A DNA stretch of 48,803 nucleotides. It comes from a virus (Duplodnaviria > Heunggongvirae > Uroviricota > Caudoviricetes). Made by a program: the position numbers and the translations under genes. The stretch is taken from IMG/VR virus record IMGVR_UViG_3300010370_000025. One strand, 5' to 3'. Shown here piece after piece: positions 6,908 to 39,136 of this stretch. The notes beneath the pieces are model-generated. The model saw nothing but the letters and a program-made list of their open reading frames with translations. It ran no database searches and had not been told where the DNA came from. Within the stretch, counting starts at the first letter, position 1. Each line of letters opens with the position of its first letter.

Positions 6908-6934
6908 TATACAATATACTTTTAAGGGCACACA

Positions 6935-13915: not shown

Positions 13916-14807
13916 AATTTAATTCTCTAAGAAGAGGAACATCAAACTTTTTAATATAATCTGTAAATTCTGTCATCTTTACTCTATTAGAATATGAAGC
14001 AATTTTATCTCTATATTCTTTATCAAGATCGGAATATAATTCAAATCCTGTTAATTTAGGTCTAGGCTCTAAATCAAACTCTTCCATAGCTAATTGACAT
14101 TTAACTTTATTAATATTAAGATATCTTTGTTTTTTAGCAGTCTCTACCCATCTATAAACCGACTCACGCTGTAAAAACGAAAGCATTAACTCTGGTGTAT
14201 ATTGAAAAAATGAAGGAATAATTTCTTTTTCTTTATTTTGAAAATATAATGCAAGTCTAGTTTCTTTTTCTTGTTCTATATCATATACTTGCAAACTATA
14301 TTTTGTTTCACCTTCATATTTTCTAGAAAGAAAATTCTCCCCCATTCCTAACACAGGTATACTATTAATTTTTTCTATACAATAAGCAAGAAGATTAAGT
14401 TGAGGGCTATTACATTTAGTCCTATATGCCATCTCTACAACTGAATTTTTAAAAAACATCTCTACGTTTATATCAAATATATCAGGAGATATTCCATACT
14501 TTGCGCATAGCCTTAATGCATAGTTAATATCGTGCATGTTAAGATTGCGCTCATATCTTATTATAGTAACTCTAGGAGTAATGCCAGCAGCTATAAAACT
14601 AAGCAACATTATTTCAGAATCAATTCCTCCACTTAAAAGCAGATCTAATTTGTTTCCGTGCTTATCGTAAAGCTCTTTAGCTACATTTATACATTCTTGT
14701 CTAAATGTTTTATGTGATTTAACCTTACCAAATTCAACCTTAAACTCATCTTCGTGATAAATTTTAAGATGATTATTTTTTGTATATTCAAAAATGTTTT
14801 TTTGCAT
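13902..14807 (-). CDS. PP-loop (asparagine-synthase-like) ATP pyrophosphatase
   Basis: LLLSGGIDSE PP-loop. Confidence 0.6.
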   Translation of the reverse strand: MQKNIFEYTKNNHLKIYHEDEFKVEFGKVKSHKTFRQECINVAKELYDKHGNKLDLLLSGGIDSEIMLLSFIAAGITPRVTIIRYERNLNMHDINYALRLCAKYGISPDIFDINVEMFFKNSVVEMAYRTKCNSPQLNLLAYCIEKINSIPVLGMGENFLSRKYEGETKYSLQVYDIEQEKETRLALYFQNKEKEIIPSFFQYTPELMLSFLQRESVYRWVETAKKQRYLNINKVKCQLAMEEFDLEPRPKLTGFELYSDLDKEYRDKIASYSNRVKMTEFTDYIKKFDVPLLRELNYEQN

Positions 14808-16188
14808 ATTCTAAAGCCAGTCCATTTGCTTGTTGACGAGCAGATGTATAATTAACATCGCTTAGGTTCATTTTCATAACTTCACTCATTGGTTTTTGAT
14901 ATGTAGCACTTAGTTCACCTAATAACCAGCCTCCTACACAACAATGAGGATCACACCATTCATTAGCTTGTAAAGCAGCTATCCTTATATGTTCGTGCCA
15001 CAGATTTTTATATTCCCAATTAATCATATTATTAGGTCTAAATTTAATATTATATGTATTATAGTTTCTATCAAACTCGCTCTGATATAGTTTCCCTGAA
15101 ACAGGATTAACATAAAGAGCCCACCATTTCCATCTATACATTTTATTATCTATGAGCCACTGCATATCTTTTTCAAGCTCACTATACGTCCATCCAGGTA
15201 TACCTAATATTAAACCTAAATGCCAATTAATTTTATTATCCCATCTCTCTCTGAGTTTAGGGAGAAAATCTTTTGCATGTGTACCTGACCAACTTTTACC
15301 TACTAGTTTAGCACTGTATGGATTAAATGTTTCTATACCAAAAAACGCGGATCTTAATCCACTTTCTTCTAACATATCTATAGTATGTGGTTTAGCCCAT
15401 AAAAGATCAGCTCTTAAAAATCCTAACCACTCAAGCTCAAACGGAACAGAGTTACGAAGTTTTACTAAATCTTTAAGTTTTTCCTCATCATCATTAATAG
15501 TATCATCTGTATAATAATATTTTGTAACACCCCATCGCTCATAGTTATACATAACTTCATCACGAAGATTTTCAAACGTTCTTGTATATGTACCTTTTTT
15601 CTTACCTATGTAAGGATAACTACAAAATTTACATTTAAATACACAACCTCTTCCAAGCTCTAATGTAAGAACTTCATGAGGATTAATATAATCGTTTTCT
15701 GTATACGTGCGTACAAAATTTTTAATATCGAACGAAGGTCTAACTATCTTAGCTCCAGACTTCTCATCAAAATATTTTAAAATATTATTTTCTGCATAAT
15801 CTGGCATTCTTAGCCATTTTAGATTACTATAAACTGAATTAGCATTTGCTCCTCCTAAAATCCATTCTATATTAGGATACTTGCTTTCTACCTTCTTTCT
15901 TGCTATACTCACCCATTCAGGAACTGGAATCACTACTTTCTTTACACCGTCTTGTATTTCTGTATCTAAATTCCAGAAAGTAGCACTACACCCAATTGCA
16001 TAAGTATCTCTAGTAATATACCTTTCGGTTAATTCCGCTATAATATCTGGTGATAAGTTATAACCGAAATCAATGACCTGTACAGTATATCCGTACTGTC
16101 GTAACCAGCTAGCAACCTGGTATGGTCCACCTGTTCTTAGTATAGAATGCACAATATCTGTGCCAGACCATATGATAAAATTAGCCAT
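14788..16188 (-). CDS. B12-binding-domain radical SAM protein
   Basis: GPYQVASWLRQYGYTVQVIDF, WILGG, ELGRGCVFKCKFC, GIET. Confidence 0.85.
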   Translation of the reverse strand: MANFIIWSGTDIVHSILRTGGPYQVASWLRQYGYTVQVIDFGYNLSPDIIAELTERYITRDTYAIGCSATFWNLDTEIQDGVKKVVIPVPEWVSIARKKVESKYPNIEWILGGANANSVYSNLKWLRMPDYAENNILKYFDEKSGAKIVRPSFDIKNFVRTYTENDYINPHEVLTLELGRGCVFKCKFCSYPYIGKKKGTYTRTFENLRDEVMYNYERWGVTKYYYTDDTINDDEEKLKDLVKLRNSVPFELEWLGFLRADLLWAKPHTIDMLEESGLRSAFFGIETFNPYSAKLVGKSWSGTHAKDFLPKLRERWDNKINWHLGLILGIPGWTYSELEKDMQWLIDNKMYRWKWWALYVNPVSGKLYQSEFDRNYNTYNIKFRPNNMINWEYKNLWHEHIRIAALQANEWCDPHCCVGGWLLGELSATYQKPMSEVMKMNLSDVNYTSARQQANGLALEYAKKHF

Positions 16189-21557: not shown

Positions 21558-22004
21558 ATGTTTAGACTGTTTTTGTTAGCTGGAATTGTGTGTTTAACAT
21601 CATTCCAAGCTCACGCTTCAGAATTAGTGCATGAGTTTAGCAGCCCTTCCTTTTCAGGTCAGGGGTGGTCTCAACATGTTCTTACAATTGAGAACATAGA
21701 AAATACCCGCAGATTAAAGCTAGCGGAAGATAAAAAAGCAGCAGCAGCTCAAGCGGCAGCTGATGCTAAGAATACTAACTTAGCTAAGTTTTTAAACAAC
21801 TTAGAATCAAGAATTTATGCTACTCTTTCTCAAAAAATTGCTGAAGAGCTTTTTAAGGAAGGAGGAGCATCTAGTGGTGAATTTGACGTAGCTGGTAATC
21901 ATATTGAGTGGTCGTCTTTAGGAAACGAAATAACATTAAGAATTACAGATCCAGGTGGTGTAGTGACTGAGATAGTAGTTCCTGTAGGAAGTTTAGCATG
22001 GTAA
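21558..22004 (+). CDS. csgF: curli assembly component CsgF
   Basis: Signal peptide, then ELVHEFSSPSFSG (CsgF N-terminal FxNPxFxG-like) and FLNNLESRIY..LS. Adjacent to csgG. Confidence 0.8.
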   Translation: MFRLFLLAGIVCLTSFQAHASELVHEFSSPSFSGQGWSQHVLTIENIENTRRLKLAEDKKAAAAQAAADAKNTNLAKFLNNLESRIYATLSQKIAEELFKEGGASSGEFDVAGNHIEWSSLGNEITLRITDPGGVVTEIVVPVGSLAW

Positions 22005-22849
22005 AATATATTACAATAGCTCTACTAGGATTAGTTTTAGCAGGGTGTACAGCAACTAATAAAGAATTTGGAAAGCCGGTCTCAGAACCAGCAGAAAAAA
22101 TGCTTCCAGTTGCTACTAAAAAAAGATATAATGAATTAATCTATTTAAAAGAACCAGCAGGGCCACCTGTTCCTATAGCTGTATATAAATTTTCCGATCT
22201 TACAGGTCAGAGAAAATCAGCAGAATATGCTAGTTTAAGTACAGCGGTTACTCAAGGATCAGAAGTATTTTTAATTAAAGCTTTACAAGATGCTGGTGGT
22301 GGCAAATGGTTTAAAGTAGTTGAAAGAGTTGGTATCGATAACTTAGTTAAAGAGAGACAACTAATAAGAAGCCAGCGAGAGACCTACGAAGGAGAAGATG
22401 CGCAAAAGCTTCCTCCTTTAGTAGTAGCTGGTGTAATGATTGAGGGCGGTATAGTCGGTTATGATAGTAATATCACAACTGGGGGTATAGGTGCTAGAGT
22501 TTTAGGTATTGGCGCCGACAAGATGTATAGAAGAGATGAGGTCACAGTTATATTAAGACTGATTTCTATTAGTACAGGCGAAGTATTACTTTCATCAGGT
22601 GTAACTAAATCAGTAGTTAGCACATCCGCAGATGGAAACATGTTAAAGTTTGTTGATCAAGGCACTGTGTCAGTAGAATTTGAAGCAGGTTATAGCATCA
22701 ATGAACCTACTACATATGCAGTTCGTATTGCAATTGAACAAGCAGTTGCAGAGATGGTTAAAGATGGTGTAAAGAGAGATCTATGGCAGTATAAAGAAAA
22801 ATCAACTGTGAGCCCCTCAACTCTTCCTAATGTAAAAAAGGTAAATTAA
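21998..22849 (+). CDS. csgG: curli secretion pore lipoprotein CsgG
   Basis: Lipobox LAGC, AVYKFSDLTGQRK, STAVTQG, FKVVER, IEGGIVGYDSN, YRRDEVTVILRLIS. Confidence 0.9.
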   Translation: MVKYITIALLGLVLAGCTATNKEFGKPVSEPAEKMLPVATKKRYNELIYLKEPAGPPVPIAVYKFSDLTGQRKSAEYASLSTAVTQGSEVFLIKALQDAGGGKWFKVVERVGIDNLVKERQLIRSQRETYEGEDAQKLPPLVVAGVMIEGGIVGYDSNITTGGIGARVLGIGADKMYRRDEVTVILRLISISTGEVLLSSGVTKSVVSTSADGNMLKFVDQGTVSVEFEAGYSINEPTTYAVRIAIEQAVAEMVKDGVKRDLWQYKEKSTVSPSTLPNVKKVN

Positions 22850-22859
22850 CGAGGGAAAA

Positions 22860-23534
22860 ATGAAACTCCTAGCAAGACTGGCAACCTTTTTGTCATTCTT
22901 GATTATGGTAAACGTTGCTAATGCAGCAGGAAATAGTATCTATATAGACCAAATTGGCGACACTTCAACTATTTCTATTACTCAGACAGGTAACAGCAAC
23001 GAAATTGGAAGTGCAAATAGTAGAGCCATCATAGATGGTAATAGTAATTTAATAACAATAGATCAAATTGGTAACTCAAATATTCTTGATATGAATATTG
23101 AAGGTGATGGTAATGAAGTAACTCAAACAATTACTGGAGACAGTAACGACTTGAGCTTACTCTGCGCTACTTGTTCCATGGTAGTCATAACTGATACCAT
23201 TACAGGAAGCGGTAACGAGTTATCAAGAATAATTGACTCTGCTAGTGGAACATCAACTGTTGATATCCAGTCAGATAACAATACAGTAAGTATTAACAAT
23301 GATTCTTCAGCTATTTCTGGAGCATCAAGTGACATTTCTATTTCCGGTGGTAATGGAAATAACATTACGTTAAATCAAACTGGGGCAGCAGGACCTAATG
23401 GTCATAACGTTATTCTTAATGTAGTAGGTGCTACAAATACTGCTGTTATTGAACAGGGGGGAAATGTAGACAGCTATGTTAATGCGACTATTACTGGTTC
23501 TGATAACAATATTAATATCAACAGTAACTACTAA
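22860..23534 (+). CDS. curlin-like repeat protein (CsgA/CsgB-like)
   Basis: Signal peptide plus repeated x-I-x-Q/I-x-G-x-x-N beta-arc units (IDQIGDTS, ITQTGNSN, IDQIGNSN, IEGDGN, ITGDSN, IEQGGN, ITGSDN). Confidence 0.75.
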   Translation: MKLLARLATFLSFLIMVNVANAAGNSIYIDQIGDTSTISITQTGNSNEIGSANSRAIIDGNSNLITIDQIGNSNILDMNIEGDGNEVTQTITGDSNDLSLLCATCSMVVITDTITGSGNELSRIIDSASGTSTVDIQSDNNTVSINNDSSAISGASSDISISGGNGNNITLNQTGAAGPNGHNVILNVVGATNTAVIEQGGNVDSYVNATITGSDNNININSNY

Positions 23535-24570
23535 CGCTTCATCTGTAGGAACAATAACAGAACAATCTGGTCCTACAGAGATTAAAAGAAATAAAGAAGT
23601 AGTTCCTTCAGCTATTAATTCAGCAGTAGAGATGGATGACACCATCACTACTGCTAATGCTGTTGCTGGAATTACATTTGAAGATCAGACACAAGTGCAT
23701 ATAACTGAGCAATCTAAACTAGTTATTGATACGTTTGTTTATGATCCTAATAAAAATACTGGTAAATTAGCTATTAAGATCGCTTTAGGTACTGTAAAGT
23801 ATACTTCCGGACAAATAGCTAAACATAACCCGCAACAAGTAGCAGTTGAAACACCTACTGCTACTATTGGTGTAAGAGGAACTGATTTTTCTTCTACTGT
23901 TGACGAATTAGGAAGATCAACTATCGTTCTTCTTCCTTCTTGTCCTGCAGGTTGGAAAAATTTAGACAAAGACTGTACTGTAGGGAGTATTGTAGTATCT
24001 ACAGATGCTGGAGAAATTTGGCTTACTAAACCATTTGAGTCCACTTCGGTAGAATCGAGAGAAGCTAATCCTAGCAAATCTGCAATTCTTGATTTGAGTT
24101 TAAATCAAATTAACAATATGTTAATTGTATCACCTCCTAAAGGTTTGAAAAAAGTAGAAGTTACTAAGGAAGATTCAAAGACTGCTTTAGATACAGATCT
24201 TCTGTCAATAGATTTTTTAGAGTATAAAGAATTAGAAACTGACTATTTAGTAACCGATAGATTAAGTATTAATTTTCTTGACGTTAATGTATTTGAAGAT
24301 GCATTATCTATTCAAACCAGTCAATTTCTTCAAAGTGAATTAGTAGAATATAATTCACTTTTACCTAAATATGATAAGAATACTGGTCTAAATTATATTG
24401 TTGAAAATGATAGCGTAATGTTGTACAGACAAAATGTAAATCATTATGCAGAAATAAATGTTTCTACTACTTCAAGTTTAACATATGAATTGACTCAAGA
24501 TAATATTAATATAAAACAAATAATAAACAGCCCTGGTACAACTACAATATACATTAACCAATCATTATAG
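23476..24570 (+). CDS. periplasmic FecR-domain protein
   Basis: Signal peptide. D.I.T....GITFED.TQV.I...SKL and VETPTATIGVRGTDF are typical of FecR. Confidence 0.8.
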   Translation: MLMRLLLVLITILISTVTTNASSVGTITEQSGPTEIKRNKEVVPSAINSAVEMDDTITTANAVAGITFEDQTQVHITEQSKLVIDTFVYDPNKNTGKLAIKIALGTVKYTSGQIAKHNPQQVAVETPTATIGVRGTDFSSTVDELGRSTIVLLPSCPAGWKNLDKDCTVGSIVVSTDAGEIWLTKPFESTSVESREANPSKSAILDLSLNQINNMLIVSPPKGLKKVEVTKEDSKTALDTDLLSIDFLEYKELETDYLVTDRLSINFLDVNVFEDALSIQTSQFLQSELVEYNSLLPKYDKNTGLNYIVENDSVMLYRQNVNHYAEINVSTTSSLTYELTQDNINIKQIINSPGTTTIYINQSL

Positions 24571-24577
24571 GTCTAAA

Positions 24578-24916
24578 ATGTTCAAGTATATTATAGCATT
24601 ATTGCTTTTATCAACACCTTGCTATGCTGGAAGTGCAATTTTAGATGTATCCGGATATAATAATGTTATGTCTTTTACGCAGTTAGGAAACAGTAACTTA
24701 AATTTTACTGCTAACAATTCTACTAATAACAATAATACATATACAGTAGTACAATCCGGAGGTAATCACTATCTAGATTTTGATTTAAATGGTGAATTTA
24801 AAGACTATGAAATTTCTATATTTCAAGTAAGTCCTCTTGATCAATTCCTATCTGTATCACAAACCTGCACCCTTTCATCTTGCTCTCCTGAGCCTTTCTC
24901 GGTTTATCAGTATTAA
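24578..24916 (+). CDS. short curlin-like secreted protein
   Basis: Signal peptide, SGYNNVMSFTQLGNSN, TYTVVQSGGNH. Confidence 0.55.
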   Translation: MFKYIIALLLLSTPCYAGSAILDVSGYNNVMSFTQLGNSNLNFTANNSTNNNNTYTVVQSGGNHYLDFDLNGEFKDYEISIFQVSPLDQFLSVSQTCTLSSCSPEPFSVYQY

Positions 24917-24918
24917 TC

Positions 24919-26949
24919 ATGAAAAATTTTATAATAGCAGTCGCACTTTTATTATCTCTAATAACTGTTAAAGTTTGGAATCCATACCCTCTACAAGTAT
25001 TAGAGCTAAAGTTTATAGATTTTATTTTAAACACAAAAGAAAAACAAGAAGTAACTGAAATTGTTGTAGTTGAAATTTCAGATAAAACTTTAGATAAACT
25101 AGGTCAATGGCCTCTTCCTAGACAAGAACTAGCTAGATTTGTAGAGCTGTTAAGATACTGGCAAGCAGGCGCTATAGTATTCCCAGTTTTATTTTCTGAA
25201 CCAGATAGATCAGGAGGCGATAAAGAGTTTGCTGATAAATTAGCTTCAGGGGGTACAGTAATAGCTCAAGTCCCTTCTAATAAAGCAGATAAACCAGACG
25301 CAGTTAGAAGAGGCTTTTCAGCTGTAGGACAAGACCCTCTTCCTTGGGCATATATGTGGCCTGGTGCTGTTAGTCCACTACCTATATTAGCTAATAAAGC
25401 TTCTGGTGTAGGTGTCATAGCTTCTACACCAGAAGTTGATGGTGTTGTTCGTAGAATGCCTATGGTTGTTAATATAGATGGTAAATTATATCCTTCTTTA
25501 CCTTTAGAAATTATAAGAGTATTAACTAATGACCCGTCGTTCCAAATTAAAACTGGAGAGTCTGGTATTGAAGCTGTACGTATCCCACAGTTTAATACAA
25601 TTACTACTGATGCTAACGGTCGCGTCTGGATTGACTCTTCTACTGTTTTTAAACATATAGATTTTTTAGATGTTAAACAAGAAGATGTGCAAGACAAACT
25701 AGTTATTGTAGGTGTATCTGCTTCAGGGGTTGCGTCAGTGTTAGCTACTCCTAATGGTGAAAAATTCTCTCATGAAGTTCAAGCACAAACACTTTATACT
25801 ATATTCTCAGGATCTTCACCTATTCGTTATTCATTTGCTAATATGATAGAAATAGCTTCTCTATTAGTAATTGGTTTAATAATAATTCTAACTGTTCCTA
25901 AGCTTCCAGTTAAATTAACAGTACCTGTGTTTGTTGCTTTAGTAGGCGGAATAAGTTATGCACCATTTTATATTTTTGATATAAGAAACGAGCTATGGGA
26001 TAGTTCATTTATAGTAATATCATCAACTCTTATATATGGACTAATAATATCAAATAGCCTTGTTAGAGAATACCTACAGAAGCTTCAAATTAAGAAACAA
26101 TTTGGTACATATCTATCTCCTGACATGGTAGAGAAGCTACAGAAGAACCCTGATTTGCTTAAGCTTGGAGGGGAGTCAAGAGAGCTTTCTATTATGTTTA
26201 CTGACGTTAGAGGGTTTACAGCAATATCAGAACACTACGGTAAAGATGTACAAGGTCTTACTAAGATAATGAATAGATATATGACTGCAATGACTCAATC
26301 TATTCTAGAAGAAAAAGGAACGCTGGACAAATATATTGGTGATGCCCAGATGGCTTTTTGGAATGCACCTCTTGATGATCCGGATCATGCTAAACATGCA
26401 GTTACCGCTGCAGTTAAAATGCTGGATAAGTTAGATGAATTTAATAAAGAGGTTGCTCAAGAAGGTGTTCCGCCCTTTGGTATGGGTCTCGGAATTAATA
26501 CAGGAACCGTCGTTGTTGGTAATATGGGTTCTTCTCAGCGTTTTGATTATACATGTTTGGGCGATAGTGTTAACCTCGCATCCAGACTGGAAGGACAATC
26601 TAAAAACTATGGTGTACAGATCATACTTGGACCTGATACAGCTGAACAAGTAAGAAAACATTATAGAGTTATTGAGTTAGATTGTATTGCAGTTAAAGGT
26701 AAAAAAGAAGGCGTTAAAATCTTTACAATTATTAACTCTGTTGATTGGGCTAATAGTCACCTAGTAATACATAAAAGATTTTTAGAAAATTATTATAAAG
26801 GTAACTGGGCTGCTGCTCGTAAAGATATAGCCGATTTAAAACTTTGTTTCAATAAAAAACTCGAGCACTATTATGACATGATGCTCGAGCGAATTGAATC
26901 TAATCCTCCAAAAGATTTTGATGGAGTTTATAGAGCTACATCAAAGTAA
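24919..26949 (+). CDS. CHASE2-domain class III adenylate cyclase
   Basis: N-terminal TM, CHASE2 (GQWPLPR, DGVVRRMP), 3 TM, IMFTDVRGFT, DKYIGDA (Lys), FDYT (Asp), NLASRLEG. Lys/Asp pair indicates ATP specificity. Confidence 0.9.
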   Translation: MKNFIIAVALLLSLITVKVWNPYPLQVLELKFIDFILNTKEKQEVTEIVVVEISDKTLDKLGQWPLPRQELARFVELLRYWQAGAIVFPVLFSEPDRSGGDKEFADKLASGGTVIAQVPSNKADKPDAVRRGFSAVGQDPLPWAYMWPGAVSPLPILANKASGVGVIASTPEVDGVVRRMPMVVNIDGKLYPSLPLEIIRVLTNDPSFQIKTGESGIEAVRIPQFNTITTDANGRVWIDSSTVFKHIDFLDVKQEDVQDKLVIVGVSASGVASVLATPNGEKFSHEVQAQTLYTIFSGSSPIRYSFANMIEIASLLVIGLIIILTVPKLPVKLTVPVFVALVGGISYAPFYIFDIRNELWDSSFIVISSTLIYGLIISNSLVREYLQKLQIKKQFGTYLSPDMVEKLQKNPDLLKLGGESRELSIMFTDVRGFTAISEHYGKDVQGLTKIMNRYMTAMTQSILEEKGTLDKYIGDAQMAFWNAPLDDPDHAKHAVTAAVKMLDKLDEFNKEVAQEGVPPFGMGLGINTGTVVVGNMGSSQRFDYTCLGDSVNLASRLEGQSKNYGVQIILGPDTAEQVRKHYRVIELDCIAVKGKKEGVKIFTIINSVDWANSHLVIHKRFLENYYKGNWAAARKDIADLKLCFNKKLEHYYDMMLERIESNPPKDFDGVYRATSK

Positions 26950-30360: not shown

Positions 30361-30389
30361 AAGAGGGGGAATTCCCCCTCTTCTCTTTT
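30361..30389 (+). terminator. intrinsic terminator
   Basis: Perfect palindrome AAGAGGGGGAATTCCCCCTCTT followed by CTCTTTT. Confidence 0.7.
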
Positions 30390-30396
30390 ATAAATA
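30389..30396 (+). promoter_or_regulatory. T4-type late promoter
   Basis: TATAAATA 5 nt before ATG 30402. Confidence 0.7.
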
Positions 30397-30401
30397 CTAG
30401 T

Positions 30402-30608
30402 ATGAAAACATATAAAGAATTTATTAAAGAGAACTTTAAAGACGGTCGTAACCCTCAAGATAAGGGCGACAGTAAACGTCACGGTGTTCCTACAAAAGCT
30501 TCTGTAAGCACTCTTAGGAAAATAGCTAAGCAAGGTGGGCGTAAGGGTCAATTAGCTCATTGGATGGCTAATATGAAAGCTGGTAAAGCTAAAGCTAAAA
30601 ACAAATAA
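30402..30608 (+). CDS. putative internal head protein with T4-type capsid-targeting sequence
   Basis: Starts MKTYKEFIKE (T4 IPII/IPIII start MKTYQEFIAE). Basic, with a late promoter. Confidence 0.65.
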   Translation: MKTYKEFIKENFKDGRNPQDKGDSKRHGVPTKASVSTLRKIAKQGGRKGQLAHWMANMKAGKAKAKNK

Positions 30609-30611
30609 TCT

Positions 30612-30640
30612 ATTGATTTTATTCTAAATATACCCTACAA
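30612..30640 (+). promoter_or_regulatory. promoter of DNA polymerase
   Basis: ATTGAT-N17-CTACAA. Confidence 0.5.
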
Positions 30641-30671
30641 TACAACAATATAATATAGTATGGATTTTTGA

Positions 30672-33194
30672 ATGAGTAAGTTTTACACGAACGTCTCACT
30701 GTATCGTGGTGATATTCTTCTTAGAGGGTATGAGAATGGTGAGCGTATTCAGCTCAATATTCCTTGCAAGCCCTATCTGTTTATTCACTCTAAGAAGAGT
30801 GATGGAGTCTACCGTAACCTTAAAGGCAAGCTTGTAGATAGGATTGATTTCGATTCTCCATCTGAAGCACGAGACTTTATTAAGCGTTATAACGAAGTTG
30901 AAGGCTTTGAGATATATGGCTTTAACAACTTTGTATATCCTTTTATCAACGATTACTACAAAGGTGAGATCGATTATGATCCTAAGCTGGTATCGAAAGT
31001 AAATATCGATATCGAAGTGGCAGCCGATCAAGGCTTCCCTGACATTCAAACAGCTGATAAAGAGATTACAGCTATCACTATGAAGAAGAATGATATGTAT
31101 ATCGTTCTAGGCTGTGGTGAGTTTGTTACTGATAACCCTAAAGTAAAATATATTAAATGTAAGAACGAAGAAGAGCTTCTTACTAAGTTTCTTGATGTTT
31201 GGTGTTCTAAGTGGTTCTCTCCTGATATTGTTACGGGATGGAACATTGAGTTCTTCGATATTCCTTATATTGTTAACCGTATTAAGCGCATACTAGGTGA
31301 TAGTATGGCTAAGAAGCTTTCACCCTGGGGTATACTAGAAGAGCGTACAGTTACTATTGCTGGACGTGATAATCAAGTATACGTTCCTACTGGTATATCT
31401 CTTCTAGACTATATGCAGATGTATCGTAAGTTTACCTTTACTATGCAAGAGTCGTATCGTCTCGATCATATCGCTAACATTGAGCTTGGTGAACGCAAGC
31501 TCGATTACTCTGAGTACGAGAGTTTGTTTGATCTTTATAAGAAGAACTACCAACTCTTTATTGAGTATAACATTAAGGACGTTGATCTAGTAGACCGTCT
31601 AGATGATAAGCTTAAGCTAATTGATCAGGTATTTGCTATCGCGTATGACGGTAAGGTTAACTATCAAGATACTTTTACATCAGTGCGTATGTGGGATGTG
31701 ATTATTCATAACTATCTACTTAGTCAGAACATCGTGGTACCTCAGCTTAAAATAACTGAGAAAGAGCGTCAGATTATCGGTGCTTATGTTAAAGACCCTC
31801 AAGTGGGTATGCATAAATGGGTTGTATCATTCGACTTGAACTCTCTATACCCTCATCTCATTATGCAGTATAACATCTCACCTGAGACATATGTAGGACA
31901 TATCTCATCTATTAACGGAGATGAGGGTGTAAAGAAAATACTTGACGGTTATCTAAACGAACCTTCAGTGCGTAATCAGCTTACTAGTCAGAACGTTACG
32001 TGTGCTGCATCTGGATGTATGTTTGATAAAGATTATCAAGGCTTCTTACCTAAGCTTATGCAGAAGATGTATGATGATCGAGTAGTATATAAGAAGCGAA
32101 TGATTGAAGCAAAGCAATCTCACGAAAAGAATCCTACTCCTGAGACTGAGAAGGCTATCGCGCAAAACCATAATATGCAGTTAGCAAAAAAAATCCAACT
32201 TAACTCAGCATATGGTGCTTTGTCTAATGCTTATTTCCGTTGGTTTGATAATAAACTTGCAGAGTCTATTACTCTATCAGGTCAGCTCTCTATTAAATGG
32301 ATTGAAAGAGAGATGAATAAATATTTGAATAAGCTATTTAAAACGAAAGATATAGACTATGTCATTGCATGTGATACTGACTCTATGTACATTACGCTTG
32401 AGCGTCTGGTCGACCAATGCTTTAGTGAGAGCGATGAAATTGGAAAGGTGGTCAAAGTCTTGGACCACGCATGTGAACATCGCTTGGAACCTTTTATTGA
32501 GTCGTGTTACGGACAGCTTAGCGAATATGTTAATGCGTATCAACAAAAGATGAAGATGAAGCGAGAAGCTATCGCTAATAAAGGTATATGGACTGCTAAG
32601 AAGCGATACATTCTTAACGTATGGAATAACGAGGGTGTTCAATATAATGAACCTAAGCTTAAGATGATGGGTATCGAAGCAGTTCGTTCATCTACACCAG
32701 CATCTTGCCGTGATAACATTAAGAAGTGTATTAAGATTATTATGAATGAGACTGAAGAAGAAACTATCAAGTTTATTGAGAGGTTTCGTGGTGAGTTTAA
32801 ACAGCTTCCGTTTGAAGAGGTTGCGTTTCCTAGAGGTTGCAAAGGTTTGAGTGACTATTCAGATCTAAATACTATCTATAAGAAGGCTACCCCTATTCAC
32901 GTTAGAGGTGCTTTGCTTTATAACTGGGTACTTAAGCAGAAAAAGCTTAATACACGTTTTCAGTCTATTCAAGAAGGCGATAAGATTAAATTTTGTTATA
33001 TGAAATTGCCTAATCCTACACGTGAAAATGTATTTGCTTGTCCAGGCACACTACCTAGACAATTAGGTATGGATCAATATATTGATTATGATACTCAATA
33101 TGAGAAAGCATTCGTTGAACCAATTAAAACTATCCTTGATGCTATCGGCTGGCAGGTTGAGAAAAAAGCATCACTTGATAGTTTCTTTTCATAG
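30672..33194 (+). CDS. 43: T4 gp43-like family B DNA polymerase
   Basis: Exo DIEV, SYRLD, DLNSLYPHLI, KIQLNSAYG, CDTDS, KKRY, MGIEAVRSSTP. Confidence 0.97.
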   Translation: MSKFYTNVSLYRGDILLRGYENGERIQLNIPCKPYLFIHSKKSDGVYRNLKGKLVDRIDFDSPSEARDFIKRYNEVEGFEIYGFNNFVYPFINDYYKGEIDYDPKLVSKVNIDIEVAADQGFPDIQTADKEITAITMKKNDMYIVLGCGEFVTDNPKVKYIKCKNEEELLTKFLDVWCSKWFSPDIVTGWNIEFFDIPYIVNRIKRILGDSMAKKLSPWGILEERTVTIAGRDNQVYVPTGISLLDYMQMYRKFTFTMQESYRLDHIANIELGERKLDYSEYESLFDLYKKNYQLFIEYNIKDVDLVDRLDDKLKLIDQVFAIAYDGKVNYQDTFTSVRMWDVIIHNYLLSQNIVVPQLKITEKERQIIGAYVKDPQVGMHKWVVSFDLNSLYPHLIMQYNISPETYVGHISSINGDEGVKKILDGYLNEPSVRNQLTSQNVTCAASGCMFDKDYQGFLPKLMQKMYDDRVVYKKRMIEAKQSHEKNPTPETEKAIAQNHNMQLAKKIQLNSAYGALSNAYFRWFDNKLAESITLSGQLSIKWIEREMNKYLNKLFKTKDIDYVIACDTDSMYITLERLVDQCFSESDEIGKVVKVLDHACEHRLEPFIESCYGQLSEYVNAYQQKMKMKREAIANKGIWTAKKRYILNVWNNEGVQYNEPKLKMMGIEAVRSSTPASCRDNIKKCIKIIMNETEEETIKFIERFRGEFKQLPFEEVAFPRGCKGLSDYSDLNTIYKKATPIHVRGALLYNWVLKQKKLNTRFQSIQEGDKIKFCYMKLPNPTRENVFACPGTLPRQLGMDQYIDYDTQYEKAFVEPIKTILDAIGWQVEKKASLDSFFS

Positions 33195-33205
33195 AAAGAG
33201 AACAA

Positions 33206-33472
33206 ATGGTAGATAAAAAAGTAATACCTATCGATGTTGATATGGATTTTGACTTTGGTTTTGGCTTTACAGATGATTTAACTGAAGCAGTTTCAGAAAA
33301 AGAAAACCAAGCAATAGTCGCACAAAATAAAGCTGTCACGATGTATAAGATGATTATGCCTCTGCTTAATAATTTAAAAAAAAATCCTGATAAACCGAAT
33401 ATAGTATGGCCTGATAGAGAAAATAAAATAAATGACTTTATCAAAAAACTAGATTCAGTTTTAAATCAATGA
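33206..33472 (+). CDS. hypothetical phage protein
   Basis: DFDFGF, LLNNLKKNPDKPNIVWPDR. Confidence 0.65.
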   Translation: MVDKKVIPIDVDMDFDFGFGFTDDLTEAVSEKENQAIVAQNKAVTMYKMIMPLLNNLKKNPDKPNIVWPDRENKINDFIKKLDSVLNQ

Positions 33473-34230
33473 TAGAAAAAAGAACAAAACATTATAAATC
33501 AATTTTTGTTTCAGATATTCATCTAGGATCTAGAATGAGTCAGGCTGAGGCGTTTTTAGATTTTATTAAATATGTTGAATGTGAAAAGCTTTATTTAGTA
33601 GGTGATATTATAGATGGATGGGCACTTCATAGATCATTTTATTGGCCTCAACAACATAATGATGTAATCCAAAAATTGATGAGAAAGGCTCGTAAAGACA
33701 CTGAAGTAATTTATCTTCCAGGTAACCATGATGAGTTTCTTAGATCGTTTGGTGAGCATGAATTCGGTAATATTAAACTTCAGGATAAAGTTATTCATAA
33801 AGGTTTAGATGGTAAAACATACATTGTAATGCATGGTGATCAGTTTGATGCAGTTGTCAATAATATAAGATGGTTAGCTTATCTAGGTTCATGGGCTTAC
33901 GATTTTTCTATGATGTTAAATTTAATAGTAACTAAAATAAGAAACATTTTTAACTTACCATACTGGTCGTTAAGTGCTTGGGCCAAATATAAAGTTAAAG
34001 AAGCTGTAAATTTTATAACAGATTATGAAGATAATTTAGCTGGATATGCACAATCAAAACAAGTAGATGGTGTAATATGTGGGCATATTCACCATCCAAA
34101 TATACGTAAAATGAATAATGGCATTATGTATATGAATAGCGGTGATTGGGTAGAAAGTTGCTCAGCATTAGTAGAGAACGATGATGGTTCATGGGAGATT
34201 ATAAAATGGACTTTAAAAGAATCGTTATAA
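33469..34230 (+). CDS. plcP: PlcP-type phospholipase C (calcineurin-like metallophosphoesterase, often annotated LpxH-like)
   Basis: SDIHLG, GDIIDGW, YWPQQHNDVIQKLMRKAR, GNHDEF, HGDQFD, YWSLSAWAK, CGHIHH, NSGDWVESC. Matches PlcP-type proteins as recalled. Confidence 0.8.
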   Translation: MIEKRTKHYKSIFVSDIHLGSRMSQAEAFLDFIKYVECEKLYLVGDIIDGWALHRSFYWPQQHNDVIQKLMRKARKDTEVIYLPGNHDEFLRSFGEHEFGNIKLQDKVIHKGLDGKTYIVMHGDQFDAVVNNIRWLAYLGSWAYDFSMMLNLIVTKIRNIFNLPYWSLSAWAKYKVKEAVNFITDYEDNLAGYAQSKQVDGVICGHIHHPNIRKMNNGIMYMNSGDWVESCSALVENDDGSWEIIKWTLKESL

Positions 34231-35207
34231 TAACTGATGCTTGGGAACCTCAAGTAAGCGGTGTAGTTACTACGCTTAAAAAAATGGTTGAGCTATCTAG
34301 ACTCAACGGTTATCAAGTAGAGGTTATTCATCCCGGCTTATTTAAATATAATTTAAAAGTTAAAGCATATCCAGAGATCCCTCTATCTATTCCACTTGGA
34401 TTAAATAAACTTTTAAAACACAAAGATAATACTGTATATCATATTGCTACAGAGGGTCCTTTAGGTCTAGCTGCTTCTTTTATATTAACATTTCGAAATA
34501 AAAGATATACAACATCATATCATACTGACTGGTCTAAATTTATGAAAGATATAGCTGGTGTCCCTAGTTGGATTACTAAAGCTTATATTAAATGGTTTCA
34601 TTATAAAAGAAAAGTGTTTTGTCCTACAAAAACAATAGAAGACTATCTAAGAAGTAATGGAATAGGAAGAAGACATATAATTTGGTCAAGAGGAGCAGAT
34701 GAAAATATATTTCAGCCTCGTACATCTAAGTTTAAAAATATACCACTTTTAGTATCTGTAGGAAGAATATCTAAAGAAAAAAATTTAGATGTATTTTGTA
34801 GTCTTCCAGACAAGTATATAAAAGTAGTTGTAGGAGACGGGCCTTATAAAAATGAACTTCAGCGCAAATACCCTAAAGTAATTTTCCCCGGGTATAAGTT
34901 TGGAGAAGAACTAGCGCAATTTTATCAAACTGCAGACTGTTTGGTATTTACTAGTAAATCAGATACATTTGGAGTAGTTTTACTTGAATCAATGTTTTGT
35001 GGCACTCCTGTTGCTGCATACCCGGTTCAGGGTCCTATAGATGTAATAGATGAAGGTATTACAGGTTGTATGGATAATAATATAGAGCATGCTATAGAAA
35101 AAAGTATGTTGCTTTCAAGAGAAAAATGTAGTACAATAGCGTTAAATAAATGGTCATGGCACCAGTCATGGGTTACATTTATAAGCAATTTAGAAAAAGA
35201 TAAGTGA
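34206..35207 (+). CDS. GT4 glycosyltransferase, Agt-like diacylglycerol glycosyltransferase
   Basis: RIVIITDAWEPQVSGVVTTL, HIATEGPLGLA, VGRISKEKNL, SKSDTFGVVLLESMFCGTPV. Directly follows plcP. Confidence 0.8.
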   Translation: MDFKRIVIITDAWEPQVSGVVTTLKKMVELSRLNGYQVEVIHPGLFKYNLKVKAYPEIPLSIPLGLNKLLKHKDNTVYHIATEGPLGLAASFILTFRNKRYTTSYHTDWSKFMKDIAGVPSWITKAYIKWFHYKRKVFCPTKTIEDYLRSNGIGRRHIIWSRGADENIFQPRTSKFKNIPLLVSVGRISKEKNLDVFCSLPDKYIKVVVGDGPYKNELQRKYPKVIFPGYKFGEELAQFYQTADCLVFTSKSDTFGVVLLESMFCGTPVAAYPVQGPIDVIDEGITGCMDNNIEHAIEKSMLLSREKCSTIALNKWSWHQSWVTFISNLEKDK

Positions 35208-35221
35208 TTGAAAGGTATAAT

Positions 35222-36262
35222 ATGTCGCTCATTGCACGTTTGATTAAGAATTCTACCATTGAAGATACGTCTGTGCTTACAGACTCTAAAGTATATGGTA
35301 AGAAAGATATGATTATTACTAACGTTCCTATGGTGAACGTAGCACTATCAGGTACTGTAGATGGTGGATTGACTCCAGGGCTTACTGTTCTTGCGGGTCC
35401 ATCTAAGCATTTTAAATCTGCTTTCTCTCTTTTAATGGCTAGTGCTTATATGAAGCAATATCCTGATAGTGTACTTCTATTTTACGATTCTGAATTTGGT
35501 ACTCCTCAAGGATATTTTAAGTCGTTTGGTATTGATATGGAGCGTGTCATTCATACTCCTATTACTGATATCGAGCAGCTTAAGTTTGATATTATGAAGC
35601 AGCTTGCTGAGATTGGTCGTGATGATAAGGTTGTTATAGTTATTGACTCTGTTGGTAACCTAGCATCTAAGAAGGAAGTTGAAGATACTCTCAATGAGAA
35701 GTCTGTTGCGGATATGTCTCGTGCTAAGTCTCTTAAGTCTCTTTTCCGTATGGTTACACCTCATTTGACACTTAAGGACATTCCTCTTATTGTAGTCAAT
35801 CATACCTATATGGAAATTGGTATGTACCCGAAGGCTATTGTAGGCGGAGGTACGGGTATCTATTACTCAGCTGATACTATTTGGATTCTCGGTCGCCAAC
35901 AAGATAAGGATGGCGGTGAAATTAATGGTTATCACTTTATCATTAACGTTGAGAAGTCTCGTTATGTTAAAGAGAAGTCAAAGATTCCTATCACAGTATC
36001 ATATGAAGGCGGTATTAAGAAGTGGTCAGGTCTTCTCGACTTAGCTATTGAAGGTGGGTATGTTATTAAGCCATCTAATGGATGGTATAGTGTTATCGAT
36101 AAAGAGACTGGTGAAGTTGGTCCTAAGATGCGCGCAGCTGATATCGAAGACAATAAAGAAGTTTGGAAGCAGCTATTTTCAACAACTGACTTTGCTAAAT
36201 GGATTGCTAATAAGTATTCACTTGTAACTGGACAGCTAGTATCAAACGAAGATGATGTATGA
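35222..36262 (+). CDS. uvsX: UvsX RecA-like recombinase
   Basis: LAGPSKHFKS, FYDSEFG, IDSVGNLAS, NHTY, VGGGTG, VEKSR. Confidence 0.95.
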   Translation: MSLIARLIKNSTIEDTSVLTDSKVYGKKDMIITNVPMVNVALSGTVDGGLTPGLTVLAGPSKHFKSAFSLLMASAYMKQYPDSVLLFYDSEFGTPQGYFKSFGIDMERVIHTPITDIEQLKFDIMKQLAEIGRDDKVVIVIDSVGNLASKKEVEDTLNEKSVADMSRAKSLKSLFRMVTPHLTLKDIPLIVVNHTYMEIGMYPKAIVGGGTGIYYSADTIWILGRQQDKDGGEINGYHFIINVEKSRYVKEKSKIPITVSYEGGIKKWSGLLDLAIEGGYVIKPSNGWYSVIDKETGEVGPKMRAADIEDNKEVWKQLFSTTDFAKWIANKYSLVTGQLVSNEDDV

Positions 36263-36764
36263 TATAGACGAACTTGACCCAGTAGTTCGTAATTGTGACG
36301 GGTGTACAAAGTGCTGTGAAGGTTATCTATATGGGCAATCATATGGTAAGCAGTTTATGCATGGAAGACCCTGTCACTTTGCTTTACTAGGCAAAGGATG
36401 CTCTATCTATGAAGATAGGCCTCATTCACCTTGCCAGACATTTAAATGTGTTTGGGTAATAGATACTAAAAGAGATTTTCCAGAATGGATGAAGCCTTCT
36501 CTATCAAATGTTATTATTGTTCCTAGACATATAAACGATATTCTTTATATTGATGTGGTTGAAGCTGGTGCTAAGATAGATTCTACAGTTCTTAATTGGC
36601 TATTTCTTTATACGCTAGAAAAGAAAGTTAATATGAGAGTGCAAATTGGAGGAGGCCATCATAACTATGGCACAAAAGAATTTCAACATGCAATGAAACA
36701 GCTACACGATGCTCAAACTAAGGTTATTGAAAATAGTACCGATAGTGTTGAAACTAGCTCATAA
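36252..36764 (+). CDS. YkgJ-like CxxCxxCC cysteine-cluster protein
   Basis: CDGCTKCC, CHF, CSIYEDRP..PCQTFKC. Confidence 0.7.
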   Translation: MMYDIDELDPVVRNCDGCTKCCEGYLYGQSYGKQFMHGRPCHFALLGKGCSIYEDRPHSPCQTFKCVWVIDTKRDFPEWMKPSLSNVIIVPRHINDILYIDVVEAGAKIDSTVLNWLFLYTLEKKVNMRVQIGGGHHNYGTKEFQHAMKQLHDAQTKVIENSTDSVETSS

Positions 36765-36924
36765 TGTTTTTAGAGGTACAGCTTTATATAAAACAGAAAC
36801 TCTAGTATTCATTTGGCATCCTAGAGATAGATTTTTTGTTTGGAAAGAGTTAAACTATACTGGAGTTACAGTTTATTATGAATTTAAAATTGGACCTTTT
36901 GTATTATGGACGAAATTAAAATAG
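36709..36924 (+). CDS. hypothetical protein (start uncertain)
   Basis: Fills the gap between flanking genes. Confidence 0.35.
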   Translation: MLKLRLLKIVPIVLKLAHNVFRGTALYKTETLVFIWHPRDRFFVWKELNYTGVTVYYEFKIGPFVLWTKLK

Positions 36925-37268
36925 CAGATAGAGATTTTTACAAGATTATTGTTAGCGATAACTTTGCTACAGGTGAAGGTCGTACAGTTTATATTCTTAT
37001 TACTAGAGCGTATCCTCATACAACAGATTATGATGAGGATTTTAAAGTAAAATCTTCTTCTACTCCAGAATTTAGAGCTATGAGAGAGTTTATAGATAAG
37101 CATGGAGCCTGGGTGGCGACTATAGCTAATTTTATCACAAAAGAAGATCTTCTCAAAAGATATAAGCATTACTTGCCTGAATATGCAATAAAGCTTATTA
37201 TGGATGATAGTATTGATGGGCCAGGTAATTTTAATTACAGCGCATCATTTCACGTTAATTATTCTTGA
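36906..37268 (+). CDS. hypothetical protein
   Basis: 120-aa ORF in operon direction. Confidence 0.6.
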   Translation: MDEIKIADRDFYKIIVSDNFATGEGRTVYILITRAYPHTTDYDEDFKVKSSSTPEFRAMREFIDKHGAWVATIANFITKEDLLKRYKHYLPEYAIKLIMDDSIDGPGNFNYSASFHVNYS

Positions 37269-37274
37269 GGCATT

Positions 37275-38645
37275 ATGATTGAGCATACCATTCTATCACA
37301 TCTTATATTCAATGAAGCATTTTGTAGGAAGGTTACTCCATTCCTTAAGGATGAATACTTCCAGAATCTATCTGAGAAGACTGTCTATAAGGTTATTAGC
37401 GATTACATTTTAAAGTATAACAACCCTCCTACGAGAGAGGTGCTTCAGATTGAATTGAAGAACCGAGAGGGTCTTAGTGAGAATACCTATAAAGAAGCTA
37501 AGCGTATTATTGAAGACTTGCAGATAGATAATACTGAGATGCAATGGTTGTTAGATTCAACCGAGAAGTTCTGCCAAGAGAAAGCAATTTACAATGCGAT
37601 TATGGCATCGATTAAGATCCTCGACGATAAGTCCGGAGCTGCCAGCACTGGTTCAATCCCCAATCTTCTCAGCGATGCTTTGGGGGTTAGCTTTGATATT
37701 TCTATCGGTCATGACTACTTTCTTAATAGCGATGATCGATTTGATTTCTATCATCGCAAAGAAGAACATATTCCCTTCGACCTGGAATTCTTTAATAAGA
37801 TTACGAAAGGCGGTTTGGTCCGTAAGACTCTTAATATCGCTCTGGCCGGCACTGGTGTTGGTAAGTCTCTGTTCATGTGTCATTGTGCTTCTTACAATCT
37901 GACACAGGGCAAGAATGTACTCTATATCACTATGGAAATGTCTGAAGAGAAGATCGCTGAGCGTATCGATGCTAATCTCCTTAACGTTACCACAGATGAG
38001 CTTACAGTATTACCTAAAGAAGCATATGATAAGAAAATTAATCGTGTAAAAGAGAAGACTGTAGGTAAGCTGGTTATTAAGGAATATCCAACTGCTTCAG
38101 CTGGCTCTGCACATTTTAGGCATTTGATCAATGAACTTAGAATTAAGCGCAATTTTACTCCTGATATCATCTATATCGACTATCTTAACATTTGTTGTAG
38201 TTCTCGTATTAGGGCTGGTGCAAACGTCAATTCTTATCAATATGTCAAGGCGATCGCAGAAGAGCTCAGAGGATTGGCCGTGGAATTCAACGTCCCAGTC
38301 GTATCAGCAACCCAAACAACCAGATCTGGCTACGGTAATTCTGACGTCGAACTCACAGATACATCAGAATCGTTCGGTCTCCCAGCAACAGCAGACTTAA
38401 TGTTTGCTCTTATCTCATCAGAAGAGTTAGAGGATCTCAATCAGATTATGGTTAAGCAATTAAAGAACCGCTATAATGATCCGACACTCTATAAGCGATT
38501 CGTTGTAGGTATTGATAGAGCTAAAATGAGACTTTATAATGTTGAGGAATCAGCCCAGGATAACATTATGCCGGATGAGAAGGTAATACAATTGAACTCT
38601 AATTCTGAACAGAAGAAGTCTAAGTTTAAGGACTTGCTTGTATGA
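37275..38645 (+). CDS. 41: T4 gp41-like replicative DNA helicase
   Basis: Walker A AGTGVGKS, TMEMSEE, KEYPT, Walker B IYIDY, SATQTTRSG, SESFG, QLKNRY. Confidence 0.95.
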   Translation: MIEHTILSHLIFNEAFCRKVTPFLKDEYFQNLSEKTVYKVISDYILKYNNPPTREVLQIELKNREGLSENTYKEAKRIIEDLQIDNTEMQWLLDSTEKFCQEKAIYNAIMASIKILDDKSGAASTGSIPNLLSDALGVSFDISIGHDYFLNSDDRFDFYHRKEEHIPFDLEFFNKITKGGLVRKTLNIALAGTGVGKSLFMCHCASYNLTQGKNVLYITMEMSEEKIAERIDANLLNVTTDELTVLPKEAYDKKINRVKEKTVGKLVIKEYPTASAGSAHFRHLINELRIKRNFTPDIIYIDYLNICCSSRIRAGANVNSYQYVKAIAEELRGLAVEFNVPVVSATQTTRSGYGNSDVELTDTSESFGLPATADLMFALISSEELEDLNQIMVKQLKNRYNDPTLYKRFVVGIDRAKMRLYNVEESAQDNIMPDEKVIQLNSNSEQKKSKFKDLLV

Positions 38646-38815
38646 CAGAAGAAGAGTATAAGAAAGAACTAGATGCATATATGAAAGAGCAATACAGTAC
38701 TTTCAAGCCTAAACCTTCTGGAATGTTCGGGCATTGGGCATGGTATGCAGTAACAAAGCGAGAGTTCAATAAGATGCTTAGTCGACAAGGCATTAAAATT
38801 ATTAAGTCTAAGTAG
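38642..38815 (+). CDS. hypothetical 57-aa protein, absent from ORF track
   Basis: ATGA overlap with the gp41 stop. MTEEEYKKELDAY... Confidence 0.5.
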   Translation: MTEEEYKKELDAYMKEQYSTFKPKPSGMFGHWAWYAVTKREFNKMLSRQGIKIIKSK

Positions 38816-38838
38816 CTATTATATAAGGAGTGTATACA

Positions 38839-39072
38839 ATGAGTGAACGTGATTACAACAATATTGATGGTGATGGTAAATTCTGGCTTTATATCTGGCA
38901 GACAGTAGCAGCTACAGTAGTATCAGTCCTTTTAATGGCATTTGTCTGGCATCATTATGATAATGAGAGACGAATGGTAGGATGGATAGAATGCGTAAAA
39001 GCAAACGGACAGCCATTAGATGTCCAGAACTACGGAGCGAATGGTACAACATTCACCTGTATTAAAAAGTAA
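38839..39072 (+). CDS. small membrane protein
   Basis: SD AAGGAG, one TM, two Cys. Confidence 0.55.
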   Translation: MSERDYNNIDGDGKFWLYIWQTVAATVVSVLLMAFVWHHYDNERRMVGWIECVKANGQPLDVQNYGANGTTFTCIKK

Positions 39073-39073
39073 G

Positions 39074-39094
39074 AGAGCGCCGTTAAGGCGCTCT
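39074..39094 (+). terminator. hairpin, possible terminator
   Basis: AGAGCGCC-GTTAA-GGCGCTCT with a weak U-tract. Confidence 0.45.
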
Positions 39095-39128
39095 TCCCAT
39101 ATCTATTACTGATTCTAAGTATATATTA

Positions 39129-39136
39129 TATAAATA
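39129..39136 (+). promoter_or_regulatory. T4-type late promoter
   Basis: TATAAATA upstream of the NUMOD3 gene. Confidence 0.55.

Follow-up and report, generated by a model that had tools for sequence, protein, structure and literature searches.

A predicted PlcP-Agt-like lipid-renovation cassette inserted between orf88 and uvsX in a T4-like aquatic myophage

The IMG/VR virus record IMGVR_UViG_3300010370_000025 was analysed over a stretch of 48,803 nucleotides (nt), hereafter the window, whose first letter is position 1 of all coordinates given below. The window is part of the genome of a T4-like, pelagimyophage-like aquatic myophage and carries, between the DNA polymerase gene gp43 and the recombinase gene uvsX, two genes that encode a PlcP-like metallophosphoesterase (MPE) and an Agt/GTcp-like glycosyltransferase of family 4 (GT4). 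The pair is read as a copy of the 'type 2' plcP-agt lipid-renovation operon of bacteria that has been adapted to a phage and would supply phosphorus by the steps set out below, and a probability of about 70% is assigned to this reading. An initial annotation had placed the pair at 33469-35207 and had named it a PlcP-type phospholipase C with an Agt-type diacylglycerol (DAG) glycosyltransferase; both open reading frames (ORFs) are there, on the + strand and intact, and the naming is supported by the LpxH family scores, the phylogeny and the motifs, so that the identity of the two enzymes, a predicted PlcP and a predicted Agt, is well supported.

The first question concerns LpxH, the uridine diphosphate (UDP)-2,3-diacylglucosamine diphosphatase, under whose name the homologues of the MPE currently circulate: public phage records (including those of the cultured T4-like phages Mosig EXVC030M and S-SRM01, where they are annotated UDP-2,3-diacylglucosamine hydrolase), the annotation of the Joint Genome Institute (JGI) for many metagenomic homologues, and at least one survey of auxiliary metabolic genes (AMGs), among those in which lpxH is listed (PMC10653327). 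If the MPE were LpxH and the GT4 a lipopolysaccharide (LPS) glycosyltransferase, the phage would modify lipid A or LPS. The motifs quoted in the initial annotation (FYWPQQHNDVIQKLMRKARK, PYWSLSAWAKYKVK and GDWVESC) are all present in the MPE; PlcP-like proteins of phages and cells alike keep them, whereas LpxH, both that of E. coli and the gammaproteobacterial one, has other residues in their place. Specifically, in an alignment of phage, SAR11, SAR116, Hyphomicrobiales and gammaproteobacterial proteins with two LpxH sequences, the signatures FYWPQxHNDV, PYWSLS, KxKVK, ICGHIHH and GDWVES belong to the PlcP-like proteins only, and PYWSLS sits in a cap that is about 10 residues longer in these proteins than in LpxH. 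The calcineurin-type metal-binding motifs (DxH, GD, GNH[DE], H, GH and GHxH) are present in the MPE, and its residues D16, H18, D46, N86, H87, D88, H122, H206 and H208 are invariant among 24 phage and cellular homologues.

The family scores point the same way. Against the NCBIfam equivalogs for LpxH, the MPE reaches 56.3 bits (NF003743, cut-off 134 bits) and 45.7 bits (TIGR01854, cut-off 190 bits), far under either cut-off, and the LpxH sequences of the PDB match it with at most 29 bits. In two SAR11 genomes, the sole match to the LpxH model is the plcP-like gene (47-54 bits), and no gene scores as LpxH; a gammaproteobacterial metagenome-assembled genome (MAG) holds both a true LpxH (315.6 bits) and a plcP-like gene (36 bits), and LpxH and the plcP-like proteins are therefore paralogous families. 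The phage MPE scores like the plcP-like paralogue, not like LpxH. A phylogeny against LpxH had been proposed as a check by the initial annotation and was run: in a maximum-likelihood tree of 103 sequences, with the LpxH of E. coli and of the MAG as outgroup, the MPE does not group with LpxH, which is set off from all PlcP-like rows with 100% support in the Shimodaira-Hasegawa-like approximate likelihood ratio test (SH-aLRT) and a branch of 2.28 on each side of the drawn root, while the window MPE falls into a clade of 35 rows, all from viral or phage-like contigs (SH-aLRT 94). Its nearest cellular homologues, at 51-55% identity, are the plcP-position genes of SAR11 (Pelagibacteraceae), SAR116 (Puniceispirillaceae) and Hyphomicrobiales.

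An AlphaFold2 model of the MPE has a mean predicted local distance difference test (pLDDT) score of 81 and values above 90 in the core, and the best 25 PDB matches found with Foldseek are all LpxH, at 17-23% identity and a query-normalised TM-score (TMq) of 0.53-0.60. That LpxH is the nearest solved fold agrees with the lipid A reading, and it would also be expected for a lipid-handling paralogue of LpxH: the LpxH structures (PDB 5B49, 5K8K and 6PH9) share with the MPE the calcineurin-like metallophosphoesterase core and the inserted helical lipid-binding cap, and differ from it in their low identity, separate clade, other signature motifs and shorter cap. The family scores, the phylogeny and the motifs lead to rejection of LpxH as the identity of the MPE, and the wider proposal of lipid A or LPS modification, against which the residues of the GT4 described below also speak, is largely refuted and keeps only a very slight probability. 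Neither the MPE nor the GT4 has a transmembrane segment or signal-like N-terminus, as fits enzymes predicted to work at the cytoplasmic face of the membrane.

The GT4 has the GT-B architecture, with a GT4 N-domain (Glyco_transf_4, residues 24-170) and a GT1-type C-domain (Glycos_transf_1, residues 177-303; Pfam). Its link to the characterised pathway goes through the published synteny and the exact residue numbering of GTcp, the Agt of SAR11 strain HTCC7211, at the SAR11 loci. HTCC7211 has the 'type 2' plcP-agt arrangement; its PlcP complements a plcP mutant, and its Agt makes monoglucosyldiacylglycerol (MGDG) as well as glucuronic acid diacylglycerol (GADG) in E. coli (PMC4796936). The cellular loci compared here show the same arrangement: 29 of 31 have a GT4 homologue beside that of plcP, on the same strand. 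It follows plcP directly in all of these but L033, in which the GT4 match begins about 440 nt downstream of the plcP homologue. The window GT4 is 35-39% identical to these cellular GT4s, over the full length where the locus holds the whole gene. Mutagenesis has identified 15 residues that matter in GTcp, among them an unusual His104-Asp256 dyad that has Asp where GT4 enzymes usually have Glu and in which D256 is not replaceable by E (bioRxiv 10.1101/2021.03.25.437072). All 15 (G16, L56, G82, G85, H104, T162, R163, R190, K195, D256, T257, F258, G259, E264 and W320) are found at exactly the published numbering in the 334-residue SAR11 GT4 of L016, and 14 of them, with the His-Asp dyad, are kept in the window GT4; the exception is T162, replaced by S at a position that also varies among other phage and cellular homologues. 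With numbering from the ATG at 34191, H111 and D258 form the dyad, and the UDP-sugar motifs GRVAxEKN and FPSxTDTFG of GTcp appear as GRISKEKN (at 191) and FTSKSDTFG (at 253). The DAG-contact residues H104, R163 and W320 are identical, and this match to the residue set of a DAG-dependent enzyme argues against an LPS glycosyltransferase.

The phage pair thus has the same families, order and strand as the bacterial 'type 2' operon of HTCC7211, S. meliloti, Phaeobacter MED193, P. aeruginosa (PA3219-PA3218) and Methylosinus OB3b, and shares with it the catalytic residues and, as in GTcp, the residues that bind DAG and the UDP-sugar. Its identities to the SAR11 homologues are 51-55% (PlcP) and 35-37% (Agt). 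Among validated proteins, PA3219 is 46-47% identical to other PlcPs (PMC8528852), and the PlcP and Agt of OB3b are 51% and 43% identical to those of HTCC7211 (PMC9239053); validated pairs share 46-51% (PlcP) and 35-43% (Agt) identity among themselves, and the identities of the phage pair to cellular homologues lie in range. Conversely, the phage pair differs from the bacterial operon in that it resides on a lytic T4-like phage within a gp43-uvsX replication operon, has no Pho box and has its MPE in an all-viral clade, and its genes share 25 nt, in contrast to 55-105 nt of spacing between plcP and agt in SAR11.

The initial annotation had described the pair as inserted between gp43 and uvsX, and comparison with sister genotypes indicates that this holds literally. 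In 58 of the 80 IMG/VR loci that are closest in UvsX, gp43 is seen as well, and in none of the 80 does the pair stand between these two genes. The closest relatives (84-89% identity in UvsX, 71-85% in gp43 and, in L124-L131, 80-87% in orf88) have the order gp43-orf88-uvsX without an insert, in a gp43-uvsX gap that mostly measures about 270-290 bp; orf88 stands directly before uvsX in all of them, and its stop lies about 20 nt from uvsX in L124-L131. When the junctions are aligned, the 1.74-kb insert is bounded precisely by the stop of orf88 and the spacer with the ribosome-binding site of uvsX; this spacer in the window aligns with the orf88-uvsX spacer of the insert-free relatives. Moreover, the GC content at third codon positions (GC3) of the cassette is 0.18-0.20 versus 0.30-0.40 for gp43, UvsX and gp41, and equals that found in CsgG, the CHASE2 cyclase and other accessory genes of the phage. 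Taken together, these alignments identify the cassette as a real, recent and precise insertion.

The same comparison weakens the idea, also put forward in the initial annotation, that the placement inside the replication module fits a role in phage DNA synthesis, since the gp43-uvsX position is peculiar to this lineage: other phages carry the pair beside a curli operon (L002-L004, L038 and L039), beside a T4 RNA ligase gene (L005 and L006) or upstream of gp43 (L074, L076 and L079). It bears likewise on the proposal that the MPE is a nuclease or phosphodiesterase like Mre11/gp47 and that the GT4 glycosylates phage DNA or protein, so that the position would reflect DNA metabolism. The place of the pair between a DNA polymerase and a recombinase gene agrees with such a role, and Mre11 and the small subunits of PolD are found among the weaker structural and NCBIfam matches; however, the position results from an insertion in this lineage that the closest relatives lack, other phages carry the pair outside their replication modules, and PlcP and LpxH are much closer to the MPE in sequence and fold than Mre11 is (TMq 0.53-0.60 versus 0.35-0.44), which makes a nuclease a most improbable identity. 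A recent insertion could also be a passenger that does little or nothing for this phage, as might be suspected from sister phages that do without the cassette and from the reassorted MPE and GT4 lineages described below, which suggest mobile DNA. Against this, the ORFs are intact and keep their functional residues, their GC3 is that of other accessory genes, their starts and stops are tightly coupled, and homologues are kept in hundreds of viral contigs; a functionless passenger is therefore considered improbable.

As to the mechanism, the reading of the pair as a phage copy of the lipid-renovation operon comprises two enzymatic steps whose predicted activities rest on strong homology. In the first, the MPE would be a Mn-dependent phospholipase C that works on the cytoplasmic side of the inner membrane and converts phosphatidylethanolamine, phosphatidylglycerol or phosphatidylcholine into DAG and a soluble phospho-head group. 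In the second, the GT4 would move glucose or glucuronate from a UDP-sugar to DAG, giving the phosphorus-free lipids MGDG or GADG, and the bilayer would stay intact. Host phosphatases would then free the phosphate of the head groups for nucleotide synthesis and hence for the phage genome, whose demand can be gauged from a contig of 195,579 bp with an identical protein, corresponding to about 391,000 phosphorus atoms per genome copy. For phosphorus mining as the purpose of the pair, and for a fitness benefit, the evidence consists of its associations with pstS: pstS abuts the plcP homologue in L103 (5778-6830) and in the cultured Pelagibacter phage Mosig (L001, 4894-5841), and in SAR11 (L010 and L011, pstS at about 7.1-8.7 kb) it is found 2.4-3.1 kb downstream of plcP-agt, and because of these neighbourhoods phosphorus mining for DNA synthesis is plausible. 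No pstS was found in the window itself. The phosphate-stress genes pstS, phoH and phoA of cyanomyophages and pelagiphages are a host-derived phosphate economy. The plcP-agt pair resembles them in a presumed phosphate-economy function on T4-like aquatic phages, and differs from them in that it would draw on phosphorus in the cell's own lipids, not on uptake from outside, and through a two-enzyme pathway.

Several observations weigh against this reading. PlcP releases phospho-head groups, not free phosphate, and no phosphatase was recognised among the genes of the window. The phosphate-responsive control typical of the bacterial operon appears to be missing: no match to the Pho box CTGTCATNNNNCTGTCAT with three or fewer mismatches occurs between 24.9 and 38.9 kb, although the consensus is of the E. 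coli/Pseudomonas type and may not be that of the host. A weak terminator-like hairpin lies inside the 3' end of the GT4 gene. The clade of the MPE is all-viral and apart from any cellular clade, and its substrate preference could therefore have drifted from that of cellular PlcP, while the cap (residues 131-185), the part expected to hold the lipid, is modelled with low confidence.

The regulatory signals nearby are otherwise sparse. Pho-box-like matches with three mismatches number six in the whole window versus 4.2 expected by chance, and the overlap of orf88 with the MPE gene leaves no intergenic room for a Pho box upstream of the latter. Sigma70-like sites are not enriched between 29 and 39 kb (37 found versus 39.3 expected), and the one site before gp43 belongs to a class that is not above chance in the region; the late motif TATAAATA has seven sites versus 9.7 expected, none of them within 30396-39129. 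Because both counts are at chance, no promoter can be assigned to the pair. A strong + strand terminator stands before gp43, and the only other one nearby is the weak hairpin mentioned above. As judged from the gene packing, the pair is probably co-transcribed with the replication genes, with gp43 as the probable head of the transcription unit, and since a Pho box is lacking and the pair overlaps or adjoins its neighbours at either end, it is probably made in every infection; it would accordingly appear together with the early or middle replication proteins and not only in phosphate-starved cells.

Expression in every infection from an early or middle operon without a Pho box also fits a different benefit of the same biochemistry, namely a remodelling of the envelope (surface or receptor) that might serve superinfection exclusion, the timing of lysis or the hardening of the membrane against stress. 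Precedents exist: lipid composition of the membrane reportedly alters phage attachment in Ruegeria (PMC9938194), glycolipids shift the polymyxin tolerance of P. aeruginosa (PMC8528852), and glycosyltransferases of pelagimyophages have been interpreted as surface modifiers (PMC7029224). Conversely, the proximity of pstS to plcP in other phages and to plcP-agt in SAR11 points to phosphate economy, and the enzymes have neither an export signal nor a transmembrane segment, as expected for action on the inner membrane from inside and not at the cell surface; envelope remodelling as the benefit is judged unlikely. The most general form of the phosphorus reading, that T4-like aquatic phages run their own lipid renovation from phospholipid to glycolipid to obtain phosphorus for DNA, here in a Pho-independent and replication-coupled manner, is advanced tentatively, at slightly less than even odds.

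The cassette is not confined to this lineage. A pattern scan of IMG/VR found that at least 572 stretches encode relatives of the MPE (572 of 600 among the matches listed). Neighbours were counted in the best 80 of the matches listed, 75 of which have room downstream: a GT4 directly follows the MPE relative in 27 of these 75 loci, and in about 26 of the best 80 a glycosyltransferase of family 2 (GT2) abuts it instead, in about 15 as a small GT2 overlapping upstream and in about 11 directly downstream. These GT2 proteins measure 233-237 residues (for example L053:4300-4998 and L117:5752-6462) and have weak, generic GT2 matches in NCBIfam; they may be an alternative glycolipid synthase partner of the plcP homologues.

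The two genes of the cassette have different relatives. The window GT4 is sister to the GT4s of L079 and L082 with 100% support and 67-69% identity, in a tree that left out some SAR11 GT4 rows whose alignments ran into the upstream spacer and gave apparent stops. The MPEs of L079 and L082, in contrast, belong to another clade than the window MPE (98% support), and uniting the three MPEs is rejected by the approximately unbiased test (p = 0.0096), for a group that was picked after the GT4 tree had been seen. The two trees disagree, and the cassette genes have therefore recombined between lineages; as far as these trees and counts indicate, the pair is a mobile, reassorting module that is common in phages. 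In one viral contig, a SegE-type GIY-YIG homing endonuclease gene directly follows the plcP homologue (L041:5716-6132), a possible vehicle for moving it between phage genomes. The homologues of the cultured phages Mosig EXVC030M and S-SRM01 (46% and 34% identity to the window MPE) differ from the window MPE in having no GT4 partner. That of S-SRM01 (L119:4995-5699) moreover lacks the WPQ and YWSLS signatures, has a branch length of 1.86 and has psbA fragments and homing endonucleases around it but no adjoining glycosyltransferase, and its function may differ.

At the scale of the locus, orf88, the MPE gene and the GT4 gene are packed tightly between gp43 and uvsX (Table 1). The best GenBank phage match of gp43, the polymerase of S-RIM8, is only 52% identical; orf88 matches no Pfam or NCBIfam family, and the sequence ATGA holds both its stop and the MPE start. 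The GT4 ORF has 338 residues from the ATG at 34191 and 333 from that at 34206, compared with 334-335 in the SAR11 homologues, and the second start is the more likely one because a Shine-Dalgarno sequence (GGGAGA, 34193-34198) lies 8 nt upstream of it; it gives the 25-nt overlap with the MPE 3' end. UvsX probably starts at the ATG at 35222 (MSLIARLIK...) and not at the GTG at 35204, as the alignments of its relatives begin at this Met.

Table 1. Positions of the cassette, its neighbours and further features in the window.
Feature	Position	Strand	Remarks
gp43, family-B DNA polymerase	30672-33194	+	DNA_pol_B 1.6e-31, exonuclease domain 8.9e-19 (Pfam)
orf88, small conserved gene	33206-33472	+	Left boundary of the insert
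MPE, PlcP-like Mn-type metallophosphoesterase, 253 residues	33469-34230	+	Metallophos 4.9e-12 (Pfam)
GT4 glycosyltransferase, Agt/GTcp-like	34206-35207 (alternative ATG 34191)	+	Glyco_transf_4 and Glycos_transf_1, 1.2e-20 (Pfam)
14-nt spacer with the uvsX ribosome-binding site	35208-35221		Right boundary of the insert
UvsX recombinase	35222-36262	+	RecA and T4_UVSX_C (Pfam)
gp41-type helicase	37275-38645		Flanking core gene
Strong terminator	30361-30384	+	Before gp43
Sigma70-like site	30613-30641		Before gp43
Weak terminator-like hairpin	35154-35171	+	Inside the GT4 3' end
Radical SAM genes, dense run	1454-16188	both	At least 7 genes
Nucleotide-sugar (UDP-glucose) dehydrogenase-like ORF, 262 residues	19583-20371		Directly after two tRNA genes
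Curli-type cassette, then CHASE2-adenylate/guanylate cyclase	21558-26949		CsgG, curlin-repeat protein, FecR-domain protein

The pair lies inside a bona fide phage genome, flanked by gp43, UvsX and the gp41-like helicase. The window also has 12 tRNA genes and features of the pelagimyophage type, namely a CsgG/curlin/FecR cassette, an Asp/Arg beta-hydroxylase and many radical SAM genes, and curli cassettes of this kind, Asp/Arg hydroxylases and radical SAM genes have been listed as pelagimyophage features (PMC7029224). The radical SAM run includes a SPASM domain, a QueC-like ATPase, a GNAT protein, a class-III aminotransferase and a SET-domain protein, and genes of the curli cassette and CHASE2 cyclase also flank the plcP-GT4 pair in contigs L002, L038 and L039. 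Lastly, the dehydrogenase-like ORF keeps the GGSCFPKD catalytic stretch and covers positions 75-294 of the 413 of its model, with the C-terminal domain missing; it may supply UDP-glucuronate for a lipid of the GADG type or be a remnant.

Phosphorus is often limiting for phage production in aquatic hosts. The known phage answers (pstS, phoA and phoH) act on uptake. A phage PlcP-Agt pair, if the reading is correct, would be a second route to phosphorus that mines the membrane of the host while leaving it intact. No description of a phage-encoded PlcP or PlcP-Agt was found in the literature searched, including the pelagimyophage, Mosig and global AMG papers, and a 2025 study of virocells speaks of 'little knowledge' of lipid remodelling in infected cells (PMC12282109). 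This genome contributes a cleanly inserted cassette together with sister genotypes that lack it, an apparent lack of Pho control and evidence of reassortment, and the phage with the cassette and its sister phages without it form a natural plus/minus pair in which the benefit can be addressed. If the reading holds, the pair represents an undescribed and widespread auxiliary metabolic function, with relatives in at least 572 IMG/VR stretches and GT4, GT2 or pstS as partners. Viral plcP copies are at present counted as lpxH or LPS genes, and would also enter the surveys in which plcP serves as a marker of bacterial phosphorus stress (PMC4796936; PMC9239053), in which case part of the environmental 'bacterial' plcP signal, a proposed marker of phosphorus limitation, would be viral.

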